From Escherichia phage vB_EcoP_WFI101126, in sequence record NC_070991.1: a stretch of 64,000 nucleotides of DNA; one strand, 5' to 3'. The position numbers were made by a program, and so were the translations under genes. Shown here piece by piece: positions 1 through 50,630 of this stretch (within the stretch, counting starts at the first letter, position 1; every line of letters starts with the position of its first letter). The notes below the pieces were generated by a model. The model was not told the origin of the DNA. It saw only the letters and a list, made by a program, of their open reading frames with translations, and did not search any database.

Positions 1-150
1 GTTCCTGTTAGTGCAGTCCATCCATTAGTCACTACCCCTGCTCCAGTGGAGAAACTTAGTTCACAATGCAAGCAGCGAACCATTCAAAACAACTTGGTTG
101 TTATTTGCCCTGATGCTGAATCTAACGCTCTGAGAAAGATACTACCTTAA
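1..150 (+). CDS. 3' end of an upstream ORF (partial, function unknown)
   Basis: Frame open from window edge to TAA at 148-150; no motif recognised. Confidence 0.25.
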   Translation, partial: VPVSAVHPLVTTPAPVEKLSSQCKQRTIQNNLVVICPDAESNALRKILP

Positions 151-179: not shown

Positions 180-671
180 ATGGATAACGTCGCATTGCCA
201 CCTGTACAACTAAACTTAAGCCCAGCTGGAATGGAATTCATCATGAAGCATGAGGGTATGAGAACCAAGGCTTATAAAGATTCCGCAGGTATCTGGACGA
301 TTTGTGTAGGGGCTACGCGCGATATGAATGGTTATCCGGTTAGGCAAGGATTAACATATTCTATAGAGGATTGTCTAGCTCTGCTAGATAGAGACACACA
401 AGACTCTGTTCGTGCTACTCAGAAAAATATAAAGGTTCCTTTGCTCATTCATGAGTTCGATGCACTCACCTCTTTCAACTTTAATGTTGGTAGTGGGGCA
501 CTGAGCACATCTAAGCTAAGGAAAGTTATCAATGGAGATGTTAAGGGTGATATATACTCAGAATTTCTACGTTGGGATAAAATTACGGTGAAAGGAGAGA
601 AGCGGAGAAGTCAGGGTCTTCATAACAGAAGGGTTGCGGAAGCTGATCTTTATACCGAAGGTAAATATTAA
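180..671 (+). CDS. endolysin, T4/lambda-type lysozyme (GH24-like)
   Basis: N-terminal EG.R..AY.D..G.WTI.VG motif with catalytic Glu/Asp/Thr spacing; AGGAGG SD upstream of ATG. Confidence 0.85.
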   Translation: MDNVALPPVQLNLSPAGMEFIMKHEGMRTKAYKDSAGIWTICVGATRDMNGYPVRQGLTYSIEDCLALLDRDTQDSVRATQKNIKVPLLIHEFDALTSFNFNVGSGALSTSKLRKVINGDVKGDIYSEFLRWDKITVKGEKRRSQGLHNRRVAEADLYTEGKY

Positions 672-1496: not shown

Positions 1497-4400
1497 ATGG
1501 CGTTGTATCCAATAAAATCACTCGGTGCTGTCGGTGTTATTGCTGACCAAGCACCTACTGATTTAGCTCCTAATGCTTTCACTAACGCTATAAACGCTCG
1601 GTTTGTTGAGCAGAGAGTTTTTAAGACGGGGGGCAACGCCCCTCTTTCTTACGTAGATGAAGATAAAGACTTAACCCCTCTGTCTTTCATATCTATGCCT
1701 TTCGATTACTATAGTGCAGGTAATAGCTTTCTTATTGTAGGCACTGACAAGAAGCTATATAAACTGACAGATGAAAGCTTGACTGATATCAGCAGAAAAG
1801 TCGCTACGGTGACTAAAAAAGCCTCTGCTACTATCAAAATATATCCTGTGGTCTCTAGGATTACTCCTAAAGAGTCTACTATTTCCATGAACTTCAATCA
1901 AACTAAATCTTTAGAAGTTACAATCTCTCCGGAAGATGCTAATAACCCTGAACTTGTTTGGAGTGTTAGTAACTCTTCTTACGGTCAGATTACTGTAGAC
2001 CCTACTGACTCCAAGAAAGCCTCTTTAACCTCTTTGAATAAAGAAGGCAATCTCGTAGTTACAGTTCAGACTAAAGACGAGTCTGTATCAGCTCAAATTG
2101 CTGTCAACATCATCGATGGAGATTCAGGTATCTTCTTGAGTCAAGATACTGTAACAGTTCGTAAAGGTGGTAATACCACAATAACTGCGGTGACTGGTAA
2201 AACTCCTGTAAGTTGGTCCACTACTAACGGTTCTATCGTTTCTGTGACTCCTAATGCTAACACACTCACGGCAGTGCTTGTTGCTAATGGAGAAGGAACA
2301 GCAACTATCACAGCGGATAACGGAACTAAAACTGCATCATGCGTTGTTAATGTAATACCACAGATTGACAGTATCACTCTGAGTCAAACAGATGTTACCA
2401 TTAACAGAGGGACTCAATATATTCTTACAGCTACAGTATCTCCAACGAATGCTCCTAATAAAAACATAACATGGACTTCCTCTAACCCGAATATTGCTAC
2501 AATATCTGGTACAGGTACAGAGGCAACCATTACTGCGATTACAGCTGGCTTCACTGAGATTACCGCTACTACTCAAGAAGGCAGCAGAACCGCTGTCTGT
2601 ACAGTTCGTGTAGATTTGTCTGGAAGGATGATGAGAACCTCTCTTATGGCTATGTCTTCTACTGAACCAGATGCTCCAGAAGTGGTTGAGGATGTAGTAG
2701 TTCCTGAGTCAGAAGAGGTTTTGTATTTTGCATCACCTTCCTCTGGGATAGATACTACTGGAATGTCTGAAGGGAATAGCTTCTATGATTATTCAAACGT
2801 GGATGACATGGAGGGTTTTGCAAGAGCTTCTCTTTTTGCCACCCCTTTAGATTCTGTAACGTTAGATGTAGTTAGTGCTTCTTTGGATGTAGGAGAGGAG
2901 ATTGTTATTACAGCTACAGCTTCTCCAGAGGGTGATTATTCTTACTTGTGGTCTGTTGATAAGACTGGGTATGTATCGACTACTTCTGTAACTGGCAAGT
3001 CTATCAAACTTACAGCTCTTCGTAAAGGTGAGATTAACATAACATGTTCTGTCAGTCAAATGACACAGAGGGATTATGATGCGTTTGATGATTACCCTTG
3101 GTATCATGCTGTTATATCAAACTGTGTTGTTGCTACTACTCACTATGAAACCCCTCAAGTAAAAGAGTTCGAATCTGAATATTTTACCGATCTTCCGGGA
3201 TGGGGAGAACAAACAGTAGTGGATAACGATGGGAACCCCTCGGTTAAGAAGTTCAACTGGAAGTGTGAAAGGGTTCGCTCTTTTAATAACAGACTCTTTG
3301 CTCTGAATATGAGGGAGTCAAACGCTTCTGGTGTTACAACTAACTACCCGCTCCGTCTTCGTTGGTCTAATTTTGCTAATGAGAACAAAGCTCCTACACT
3401 GTGGGATGACTTTGCCTATGATCGTTTAGTAACATCTGACTTAGCTTCGAATATAGTGGGACAGACTGAGGCTCTGGAAAATGGTTATGCTGGTTACATT
3501 GATTTAGCAGACTCTAACGGGAGTTTAATTGATATCCTACCTCTTAAAGATTACTTGTTCGTTTACACAGAGTTTGAAACGTACATTGGTTCTCCAACTA
3601 ATAACACGTATCAACCACTGATGTTCAAGAAACTCTTTAATGACTCTGGTATCCTTGCCCCTGAGTGTGTAGTAGAAGTTGAAGGCAGTCACTTCGTTGT
3701 TACTCAGAACGACGTGATTCTACACAACGGTGCAACTAAGAAGTCAATTGCTTCCAACCGTGTCAAGAATATGTTGATTAATGAGATATGTCTGGTCAAC
3801 CCGTTAGCTACCAGAGTTCACTTACATCAAGATAAAAAAGAGGTTTGGATTCTTTATGTAGGTCCGGGAGAGCCTAAGGAAAGCTATGCTTGTACTAAAG
3901 CTGCTGTATGGAATTACGAGTTTGATACTTGGTCTTTCCGTACAATACCTTACGCTCAGTGTATTGGTTTGGTTGATCCCCCTGTTCTTGAGAGAGGTCC
4001 AATCTGGGCTGATTTCCAAGAAATCTCTTGGGATGATCCGTCAATAAAAGAGCTAGTCTGGAGGAAAGATGCAACAAACTTCCGTCAGAGGATAACCATA
4101 GTAGGTTCTTTCTTACGTGGATTCTATCAAGTGGATATTGGTGCTTTAGATTATTTCTATGATAGACTCAATGATACTGTTATAGAAAAACCCTTGGAGA
4201 TGAGGTTAGAGAGAACAGGCATTGATTTTGATAATGTCACTAATGAATGGAATCAGAAGCATGTCAACAGATTCAGACCTCAAACAACAGGTTCTGGAAC
4301 TTATGTATTCGAAGCAGGAGGCAGTCAATTCTCAAACGAATATGGTCATCCACACACATCTAAAACATACACAATCGGTGTTGATAGGCATGTCTCTGTG

Positions 4401-23127: not shown

Positions 23128-23325
23128 TTAACTGTTCACTTTAGCTTCAAGTGTTTCGTTTTCAATACTCAAGTCAATCACTACACCAGTAAGCTCAACG
23201 ACTGCTTGGCGAAGGGCATCTTTACCCATAGAGTGTACTTGAGATAAGAAGAAAGCTTTACCTTCTTCAGTGGATAGGGTTTCTTTCAGTTCAGTTGCAG
23301 TCATTCTTTTCCTCTCTCTTTCCAT
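23128..23325 (-). CDS. hypothetical protein
   Basis: ORF track. Confidence 0.3.
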   Translation of the reverse strand: MERERKRMTATELKETLSTEEGKAFFLSQVHSMGKDALRQAVVELTGVVIDLSIENETLEAKVNS

Positions 23326-48271: not shown

Positions 48272-48487
48272 CTAAAAATCACTTGATTTTACAAAATCAT
48301 CACTAAGGATTTCGTCAATCTCTTTGCTAGTCAAATCTTTCCTGAACCAGCAACAAGGAACATCCACCCATTGACCAGAGTTGTTTTCTACAGAGCATCT
48401 ATTGCCTGTCTTACTCTTGCACTTATAGGTTTTCCCTTTGTCTAGACGATAGTGTATTCTGTAAACGATCGACACAAGTGCTATCAT
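48272..48487 (-). CDS. Cys-rich hypothetical protein
   Basis: ORF track. Confidence 0.3.
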   Translation of the reverse strand: MIALVSIVYRIHYRLDKGKTYKCKSKTGNRCSVENNSGQWVDVPCCWFRKDLTSKEIDEILSDDFVKSSDF

Positions 48488-48744
48488 TACTCTATCCTAA
48501 CTGAAGGGCAGTATTTCTCTTTCTTGCTGCGATACATCACAACAATCCAGTTTGAATCACGACGCTCTTTCTTACGTCGTTTCTTTTCAGCACGAGTTTC
48601 ATATGTGCTAGTTCGGTGGTCACGGTATATTCCACGAAGTTCATGAAATGCCCAACTACCACCAAACACTACACCAGCCAAAGCAGCCAAAGGTAAGGCA
48701 CCAAGAGCAGGGGCAGTGAACCATGTCCACCAATTGAATGACAA
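48487..48744 (-). CDS. membrane protein with basic C-terminal tail
   Basis: TM helix then RAEKKRRKKERRD; overlaps 48669..48950. Confidence 0.3.
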   Translation of the reverse strand: MSFNWWTWFTAPALGALPLAALAGVVFGGSWAFHELRGIYRDHRTSTYETRAEKKRRKKERRDSNWIVVMYRSKKEKYCPSVRIE

Positions 48745-48950
48745 AAATTCTCATGTCCAAGGAGAGAGCCACCAATCATGGATAGTGCAGCGTATACAAT
48801 CCCTAACAGCAGCGTCAGTGCAATGAAGTGCATCACTGTACGCCAGAAGTATTCGCAAAAGTTAGTCATATTATCCCAATGAGGGTTGGGTAAACCTGAC
48901 ATGGTTTTGTTTAACTTATGCAACCATCCGTTCTTGTTAATCTTGATCAT
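48669..48950 (-). CDS. membrane protein
   Basis: TM helix; possibly one gene with 48487..48744 separated by a frameshift. Confidence 0.3.
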   Translation of the reverse strand: MIKINKNGWLHKLNKTMSGLPNPHWDNMTNFCEYFWRTVMHFIALTLLLGIVYAALSMIGGSLLGHENFCHSIGGHGSLPLLLVPYLWLLWLV

Positions 48951-49183
48951 TACTCACCTTTCTTGGCACGATCTTTGGCAGTTTTACCAGTGCGGATGCG
49001 ATGGGAAACGTTAACCAGAGTACCACCATCAACTACGGTAACGCTCTTGTTTTTAGCCAGATCAAACACAGTCTTCTCTGTGCCACCCAAGCGAATTTGC
49101 TTAGGCTCACTGAAGGTTTGGGTTGATTTAGATTGGAACTGGAACGGTTGACGGATTGCATCGATTGCGCTTACTTTAGACAT
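48950..49183 (-). CDS. hypothetical protein
   Basis: ORF track. Confidence 0.35.
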   Translation of the reverse strand: MSKVSAIDAIRQPFQFQSKSTQTFSEPKQIRLGGTEKTVFDLAKNKSVTVVDGGTLVNVSHRIRTGKTAKDRAKKGE

Positions 49184-49639: not shown

Positions 49640-49885
49640 TTACATTAGAGTTAAGATGATCTCTGCTTTGGCAAACTTCTCACCAACTTCAAGAGTGTCA
49701 GAAACAGGACGAGGTTCGCCTGTGCCTAAATTAACTGCTCTGCGATATCCACCAGATAGAGGCATCATCAAATAAATGACCTGACTGTCATCATCTTTTA
49801 AAGTAAAGATGTCAGCGGTTGACAGATCTTTAACAAAGAGTTTCTTTTCTTCTTTGTTGTGAACCTTGATATGTATCGTGCTCAT
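49640..49885 (-). CDS. small beta-rich protein, multicopy family member
   Basis: L..DL...D.F...........NLGTG...P pattern shared with family. Confidence 0.4.
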   Translation of the reverse strand: MSTIHIKVHNKEEKKLFVKDLSTADIFTLKDDDSQVIYLMMPLSGGYRRAVNLGTGEPRPVSDTLEVGEKFAKAEIILTLM

Positions 49886-49887
49886 AC

Positions 49888-50139
49888 CTACTCCTGAACC
49901 ACAGACATACGAATCATCTCTACCTGATCATCAAGACTTTTAACAGATAGTACACCTGTAAAAAGGTTTACCACAGGAACCCAACCACTAGCTATACGGA
50001 TGTTACCAGAAGCATTTTCAACCCTCATATAATATTGAGGAGAAGCACTTCCGTTCTGAACTACGAAGGGGTTTCCGGGAATGATTGTTTCCAATCGTAC
50101 CGTATTATCCTTTTTCTTAGGGATGATTTTCATTAGCAA
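49888..50139 (-). CDS. small beta-rich protein, multicopy family member
   Basis: Family pattern. Confidence 0.4.
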   Translation of the reverse strand: MLMKIIPKKKDNTVRLETIIPGNPFVVQNGSASPQYYMRVENASGNIRIASGWVPVVNLFTGVLSVKSLDDQVEMIRMSVVQE

Positions 50140-50208
50140 TCACTCACTAAAAGTTCTGCCGACACAGGAATAACTTGGCACCAGCTAGACGGTGCTGTTA
50201 CGTTACCA

Positions 50209-50379
50209 TCAGATAGACGGAGAGAGTACTCGATCAGAGTTAACGGTTACATTAGGACTTTCAGATACAGTCCCTTTGACATAGAGAGTAGCACTCTCGG
50301 GGAATTTAAATACTGCTCCGCTGGGAAGGGTGTTGAGATCAACCTTGGTCACTTCTTCTTTCTTGTGAGTAATCTTCAT
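50209..50379 (-). CDS. small beta-rich protein, multicopy family member (56 aa)
   Basis: KVDLNTLPSGAVFKF; ATG overlaps stop of upstream gene (ATGA); below track cutoff. Confidence 0.35.
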   Translation of the reverse strand: MKITHKKEEVTKVDLNTLPSGAVFKFPESATLYVKGTVSESPNVTVNSDRVLSPSI

Positions 50380-50630
50380 TTAGAATCCTTAATAACGTTA
50401 GCTTCAACCTTAACAGGAATAACAGAGATGCCCTCAACGGGGCCACTTAAGTGTCCATCTTCCAGTCTGACACACACGACTCGATCTCGTGCAACTTCTA
50501 CCCAATTAGTAGATGCCGCAGTACAGACCATATGAATTGGACCGTTCTCTTCCAGCCGGAAGGTAGCGCCCTTCTTCAGAGTGTGGAGTTTCACAGTCTT
50601 GATAGTTTTGTTCAATTCGTTAACTTTCAT
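50376..50630 (-). CDS. small beta-rich protein, multicopy family member
   Basis: VKLHTLKKGATFRL... family pattern. Confidence 0.4.
   Translation of the reverse strand: MKVNELNKTIKTVKLHTLKKGATFRLEENGPIHMVCTAASTNWVEVARDRVVCVRLEDGHLSGPVEGISVIPVKVEANVIKDSK

Follow-up and report, generated by a model that had tools for sequence, protein, structure and literature searches.

The gene described here belongs to a family that is already known, and in this respect the case is an ordinary one. In Escherichia phage phiEco32 it corresponds to phi32_92 (YP_001671837), annotated as 'membrane protein', and related proteins, including gp113 of Salmonella phage 7-11 and PAK_P100153c of Pseudomonas phage PAK_P1, are members of PHROG 944, which is labelled 'membrane protein' and placed in the category 'moron, auxiliary metabolic gene and host takeover'. 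Class II holins are proteins of about 65-95 aa, of which S21 of phage 21, with two transmembrane (TM) helices in an N-in/C-in arrangement, is an example, while T4 Imm exemplifies the small early inner-membrane proteins with roles in superinfection exclusion or host takeover. In kuraviruses, the holin and the endolysin are found together among the late morphogenesis genes (PMC7881722, PMC9965538).

We analyzed a window of 64,000 nucleotides from the genome of Escherichia phage vB_EcoP_WFI101126 (NC_070991.1), where the homologue of phi32_92 (gene 92 from here on) appears as two overlapping ORFs, which a preliminary description of this DNA had proposed to be a single holin-like gene split by a frameshift. 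The 1.5 kb around this finding were matched by 98 phage records, all of them phiEco32-like coliphages (genus Kuravirus); the best match to this region, with 99.9% identity, was Ptacy1532, which also aligns with the whole window in large collinear blocks of ~96-99% identity. Our main reading, to which we assign a probability of roughly 0.88, is that gene 92 has been split because a run of six T's has lost one, and that its product is a predicted early accessory membrane protein and not the holin. The relevant features, in window positions, are the following:

48487..48950, minus strand: gene 92 homologue (phi32_92, PHROG 944 'membrane protein'), from the alignment with Ptacy1532 and phiEco32 and the comparison of the fused translation with PHROG 944
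48669..48950, minus strand: 5' fragment, ORF of 93 aa with an ATG start, from the ORF listing and a profile match
48487..48744, minus strand: 3' fragment, ORF of 85 aa with a TTG start, from the ORF listing and a profile match
48743..48747, minus strand: frameshift site, T5 on the coding strand (A5 on the plus strand), from the alignment with relatives
48950..49183, minus strand: upstream gene, phi32_93 homologue, phrog_6662
48272..48487, minus strand: downstream gene, phi32_91 homologue, phrog_33631
1..150, plus strand: 3' end of the annotated kuravirus holin gene (phi32_16 homologue, phrog_11161), cut by the window start
180..671, plus strand: endolysin gene (phi32_17 homologue, phrog_7)

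The 93-aa and 85-aa ORFs overlap by 76 nt (48669-48744) in different frames, as stated in the preliminary description. The homopolymer run that had been noticed in the overlap, CAAAAATT at 48742-48749 on the plus strand, with A5 at 48743-48747, is located at its upstream edge, and the frameshift falls exactly in this run. Both ends of gene 92 are joined to the neighboring genes through TAATG sequences, the stop of the phi32_93 homologue overlapping the start of gene 92 and the start of the phi32_91 homologue overlapping its stop. In the 93-aa ORF, residues 1-69 are authentic and comprise the conserved cytoplasmic N-terminal motif and the first TM segment (TM1), and the 24 residues that follow are out of frame and rather hydrophobic. 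The 85-aa ORF corresponds to residues 70-154 of the intact protein, with the second TM segment (TM2), the basic tail and the conserved C-terminal KYCP motif; its TTG is formed from the last two T's of the run, has a TGA two codons upstream in frame and is preceded only by a weak GAG, 5 nt upstream. The 93-aa product is identical to 'membrane protein [Escherichia phage vB_EcoP_WFI101126]' in NCBI/UniProt, and no separately annotated product was found for the 85-aa ORF among the protein matches returned; the 93-residue 'membrane protein' of the public record is the front half of a 154-residue gene whose back half is unannotated. A scan for promoters and terminators around the gene 92 locus gave sites no more numerous than those in shuffled sequence.

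Comparison with the relatives indicates what has happened at this site. The gene 92 interval measures 464 nt in WFI101126 and 465 nt in its relatives, and in both phiEco32 and Ptacy1532 it consists of a single 465-nt CDS, translated into 154 residues with ...GHENFLSFNWW... at the junction. In a three-way alignment, gene 92 was 100% identical to the Ptacy1532 copy except for a single-base gap, T5 for T6, and its identity to phiEco32 was 97%; SR02 also has T6 at the frameshift site. When compared with PHROG 944, the 93-aa ORF matched profile positions 84-158 (E 3.4e-20) and the 85-aa ORF positions 147-228 (E 1.2e-13), while residues 1-154 of the fused protein covered positions 84-228 of 235 with an E value of 2.4e-39. 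Such consecutive matches imply that the pair of ORFs is not due to chance and, along with the single-frame orthologues and the change from T6 to T5, support the proposal that a frameshift has split a single gene. After codon 69 the frame is lost and the single ORF of about 135-170 aa that characterizes PHROG 944 is not present, so what WFI101126 carries is a disrupted allele of this family and not an intact member.

Orthologues of gene 92 were recovered from several sources. A tblastn search with the fused protein gave a full-length match within a single frame for 32 of the 33 phage records, with identities from 100% to 25%, the other record being a partial, distant match; these records correspond to kuraviruses, Salmonella 7-11-like phages, Pseudomonas PAK_P1-like phages and a T4-like Erwinia phage, so that PHROG 944 can be regarded as a small membrane-protein family spread over several phage groups. 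Altogether, the gene was seen in one frame in 21 kuravirus records, 11 more distant phage records and nine metagenomic clusters (defined at 90%; lengths of 154-159 aa). An exhaustive profile search of 1.84 billion representative proteins gave 78 clusters, nearly all of 130-170 aa and matched end to end, the sole shortened entry being precisely the 93-aa ORF of WFI101126. The orthologues examined were all single ORFs of 135-160 aa; none of them consists of two separate overlapping genes, the arrangement that would have spoken against the preliminary description, and the split was found in none of about 100 relatives. The T6 run is confined to the subclade formed by phiEco32, SR02 and Ptacy1532, and PGN6866, the SU10-like, the NJ01-like and other orthologues have no run at that position. 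Exact-sequence searches of a contig index with both ORF products yielded no match, a scan of IMG/VR with the fused protein returned phiEco32 and NJ01 only, and no T5 or T6 copy was found when metagenome and genome collections were searched with the site pattern allowing any run length from 4 to 8.

Within the group of close relatives the gene is patchily distributed: of about 98 related records, 21 contain gene 92 DNA and 97 the phrog_11161 holin. Gene 92 is missing from about four in five related phages, all of which keep the phrog_11161 holin, and in EcoN5 its absence takes the form of an exact gene-sized gap at which phi32_93 and phi32_91 abut. In most kuraviruses the homologues of these two genes adjoin with a 1-nt overlap exactly at the gene 92 site, and gene 92 has the appearance of a clean presence/absence cassette (48487-48950 compared with 574-1022 of EcoN5, in the numbering of the compared EcoN5 piece). 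With respect to the surroundings of the homologues, in three unrelated phage groups they are found near NAD/nucleotide-salvage genes, which may be a coincidence in 'auxiliary' regions: in Aeromonas phage APT65, nicotinamide phosphoribosyltransferase and PRPP synthetase genes are located immediately upstream (piece 29-2938), in 7-11 a NAMPT gene lies about 1 kb upstream (compared piece 1-1953), and in PAK_P1 a PRPP synthetase gene is three genes downstream (compared piece 1501-3405).

Alignments of 15 phage orthologues and distant representatives revealed two conserved motifs that flank a two-helix hairpin, I-N-K-N-x-W-x-H...C-x-Y-F-W at the N-terminus and K-x-K-[YF]-C-P at the C-terminus; in WFI101126 the former is carried by the 93-aa ORF and the latter by the 85-aa ORF. 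Among kuraviruses, pairwise identity averages 88% at the N-terminus and 89% at the distal C-terminus, and 55-61% over TM1, the loop and TM2, and one Cys at each end (LC.YFW, K.CP; C32 and C148) is kept even in PAK_P1 and in distant metagenomic members. Each ORF gave one TM-like segment in a 19-residue Kyte-Doolittle scan (residues 42-60 in the 93-aa ORF and 9-31 in the 85-aa ORF), in line with the one hydrophobic helix previously attributed to each of them. In the fused protein the segments are at about 42-60 and 78-100, and the charges of +3 at the N-terminus, -1 in the loop and +9 in the C-terminal tail predict an N-in/C-in topology; two TM helices and a charged C-terminus had been anticipated for the joined product. 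The basic stretch RAEKKRRKKERRD, which had been described as the end of the second ORF, is indeed present in it, but does not constitute the very C-terminal end, because 22 more residues (SNWIVVMYRSKKEKYCPSVRIE) follow. An AF2 model of moderate confidence (pLDDT 71.7) shows helices at 31-63 and 76-142. The intact product would be a 154-residue inner-membrane protein of 17.8 kDa, in which 39 cytoplasmic residues at the N-terminus precede two helices that form a hairpin (about 40-63 and 76-100) and a basic cytoplasmic tail of 52 residues closes with the conserved motif. The combination of conserved cytoplasmic ends and variable TM helices suggests that the protein is anchored in the membrane and acts on the cytoplasmic side.

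Gene 92 is part of a leftward cluster of small genes, on the opposite strand to the endolysin gene and about 48 kb away from it. In SU10, CDSs 69-125, which form the leftward cluster, were assigned to the early class (PMC4281155), and the gene 92 homologue of this phage was put in that range by map position alone; likewise, the phiEco32 cluster that corresponds to the gene 92 region has been marked as early, and described as such on experimental grounds (PMC8948821). Taking together this position and the conservation pattern, the product is most likely an accessory early protein, of the host-takeover or exclusion type, that acts through its cytoplasmic ends, its early class being based on map position. 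On the same strand, four to five paralogues of ~80 aa with MKI... starts, related to phrog_12612, 7431, 8365 and 7832, are arranged in tandem at 49640-50630; genes around gp113 and the endolysin of 7-11 match the same PHROGs weakly.

As for the consequences of the split, one T would have been lost from the T6 run at codons 68-70, interrupting the homologue of phiEco32 gene 92. Translation initiated at the ATG would yield the N-terminal motif and TM1, after which 24 residues would be read out of frame, and the C-terminal half would be left without a proper start, its conserved motif being made only if the TTG were used. Because of this lack of a proper start for the C-terminal half, gene 92 of WFI101126 is most likely inactive as written. 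The downstream phi32_91 homologue has its own AGGA 7 nt before the ATG and so need not suffer from the lost TAATG coupling.

The explanation that competes best with a true mutation is that the missing T corresponds to a homopolymer undercall in the deposited genome and that the phage itself has an intact gene 92, a possibility that we consider substantial, albeit somewhat below even odds. The genome of WFI101126 (MK373770; 77,307 bp, 97.9x coverage) comes from a study in which either PacBio RSII/HGAP3 or Illumina/SPAdes was used, the one applied to this phage being unspecified in the paper or its supplement (Korf et al., 2019; PMC6563267). The loss of 1 nt from a 6-base homopolymer, as seen here, is the commonest residual error of PacBio RSII/HGAP, one of these two methods; besides, gene 92 and its Ptacy1532 counterpart are otherwise 100% identical, hence without signs of decay, and an independent T5 copy was absent from every collection searched. 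On the other hand, the coverage of 97.9x and the rarity of such an error if the genome was obtained with Illumina/SPAdes argue against an undercall, as does the overall comparison with Ptacy1532, where 71 indels were counted, most of them compensated pairs in divergent stretches or in non-coding DNA, and coding sequence was not enriched overall in homopolymer indels. In well-aligned coding sequence there are three clean, uncompensated contractions of simple repeats with respect to Ptacy1532, all of them affecting small genes: the gene 92 site, a 2-nt loss in (CT)4 that reduces the phi32_97 homologue from 82 to 56 aa, and a 2-nt (CT)n loss near 23312 that alters the last residues of a 45-aa ORF. 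Since these other two ORF-changing indels are losses in dinucleotide repeats, untypical of consensus errors and more like replication slippage, the balance leans towards real slippage, and the fact that gene 92 is dispensable in the genus means that a real knockout would be tolerable. No second mutation was found in gene 92, which fits a very recent mutation or an artefact alike. By about three to two, we favour true slippage, in an accessory gene that the phage can do without, over a consensus undercall.

Some further observations on these contractions and other indels can be added. The phi32_97 homologue (50134-50379, minus strand) has 82 aa in Ptacy1532 and phiEco32 and is represented here by a 56-aa ORF at 50209..50379; the break is a 2-nt loss near 50220, in the (CT)4 repeat on the coding strand, and the shortened homologue matches only profile positions 1-47 of the 77 in phrog_7832. 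At ~23300-23320 (minus strand), the end of the 45-aa ORF reads ...KERGKE where Ptacy1532 has ...KEREEKNDCN, following the 2-nt (CT)n contraction, and this altered end sits just upstream of the start of the next gene. The segment 59200-62400, equivalent to positions 72.5-74.6 kb of Ptacy1532, where roughly 2 kb carry no annotation, and to the adjacent sequence, contains many small indels, including homopolymer length differences such as C5/C4, T6/T5 and G6/G4.

With gene 92 read as split by the loss of a T, either the annotation should indicate a frameshifted gene or pseudogene or the deposited sequence should be corrected, and a holin label is unwarranted. If the mutation is real, gene 92 has been knocked out naturally in a phage that is viable, and would be dispensable for growth on the isolation host.

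The possibility that intact gene 92 encodes a class II-type holin or another lysis-timing protein (an auxiliary holin or an antiholin) appears improbable. Its basis is the general shape of the product (two TM helices, N-in/C-in, and a strongly basic C-terminal tail), to which can be added the situation in 7-11 and pSal-SNUABM-01, where the endolysin gene lies 2-3 genes downstream of the homologue; of the five genes checked around the 7-11 endolysin, only the homologue encodes a TM protein, and the phiEco32-type holin has been reported to be absent from this phage (PMC4281155). It is because of this proximity to the endolysin that we keep a lysis-related role as a chance of less than one in ten. 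However, an annotated terminator separates the homologue from the endolysin, two genes away, in 7-11, and the homologues of PAK_P1-like and T4-like phages are far from any annotated lysis gene. No significant family was assigned to the fused protein by Pfam, NCBIfam or PADLOC, none of the matches in Pfam, PHROGs and NCBIfam was to a holin family, and Foldseek found only members of the family in BFVD, with no PDB match beyond noise and a single holin in the list, at E = 9.3. In WFI101126 itself, gene 92 is on the opposite strand to the endolysin, in the early cluster and about 48 kb away, outside the lysis cassette, where a separate annotated holin, present in 97 records as opposed to the 21 that have gene 92, adjoins the endolysin. 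Finally, at 154 aa (130-170 aa in the family), and with conserved cytoplasmic motifs and variable TM helices, the protein is unlike the class II holins. Of the features expected for a holin, the TM helices and the charged C-terminus were found, whereas the size, the position in the lysis cassette, a family match by sequence or fold and conservation among close relatives (21 of about 98 records) all point elsewhere; the holin-like character put forward in the preliminary description reduces to a generic shape, and the identification of the gene 92 product as the holin of the phage is not supported.

Regarding the annotated kuravirus holin, the Ptacy1532 copy of the phi32_16 homologue matched phrog_11161 'holin' with an E value of 1.4e-48. 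This 72-aa protein, seen at 1-150 (plus strand) of the window and at 779-997 of the compared locus, contains one hydrophobic segment, at the N-terminus, and a tail of 43 residues with little charge; its label derives, as far as found, from annotation and PHROG naming only.

A more ambitious view, according to which PHROG 944 would be a widespread early membrane effector, the T6 run of the phiEco32 subclade a mutational on/off switch and the T5 allele a natural 'off' state and not an error, is in our opinion also improbable. Were it true, the N- and C-terminal motifs, with one invariant Cys each, could form a functional module serving, for example, exclusion, anti-defence or lysis timing; the family itself spans kuraviruses and 7-11-like, PAK_P1-like and T4-like phages.

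Least credible of all, to the point of being negligible, is that the split is functional, with -1 ribosomal or transcriptional slippage restoring the full length or the two halves being made separately and cooperating: a tRNA-Phe slipping by -1 in the P site on U_UUU would restore the exact wild-type ...ENFLSFNWW..., and the weak GAG 5 nt upstream of the TTG might serve the second half, but there is no heptanucleotide X_XXY_YYZ signal at the T5, a run much too short for RNA polymerase to slip on efficiently, the arrangement occurs in none of about 100 relatives, and the run is missing from most orthologues, being present only in the phiEco32 subclade and in frame in its T6 copies, so that no slippery site is conserved. 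A programmed frameshift site, given the single frame of all orthologues and a slippery sequence without conservation, and a two-gene arrangement, ruled out by comparison with orthologues that are all single-frame, were both rejected as candidates.

The split gene 92, as we interpret it, can finally be set against the systems mentioned at the beginning. With class II holins such as S21 of phage 21 the intact product shares the two TM helices, the predicted N-in/C-in topology and the basic C-terminal tail, but it is about twice their size and without sequence or fold match to them, its gene is placed away from the endolysin in an early cluster, with a patchy distribution in the genus and a separate annotated holin present, and constraint falls on its cytoplasmic ends and not on the TM helices. 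To characterized exclusion proteins it has no known sequence similarity and can be likened by architecture and position only; in these terms it resembles the early inner-membrane proteins of the T4 Imm type, as a small helical membrane protein that is encoded among early accessory genes and variably present among close relatives. Its true counterparts are the Ptacy1532 protein, to which the fused WFI101126 product is 100% identical, and phi32_92, with 94.8% identity and the same flanking genes, TAATG junctions and length, from which the WFI101126 gene differs in having lost one T of the T6 run, with the frame broken after residue 69.
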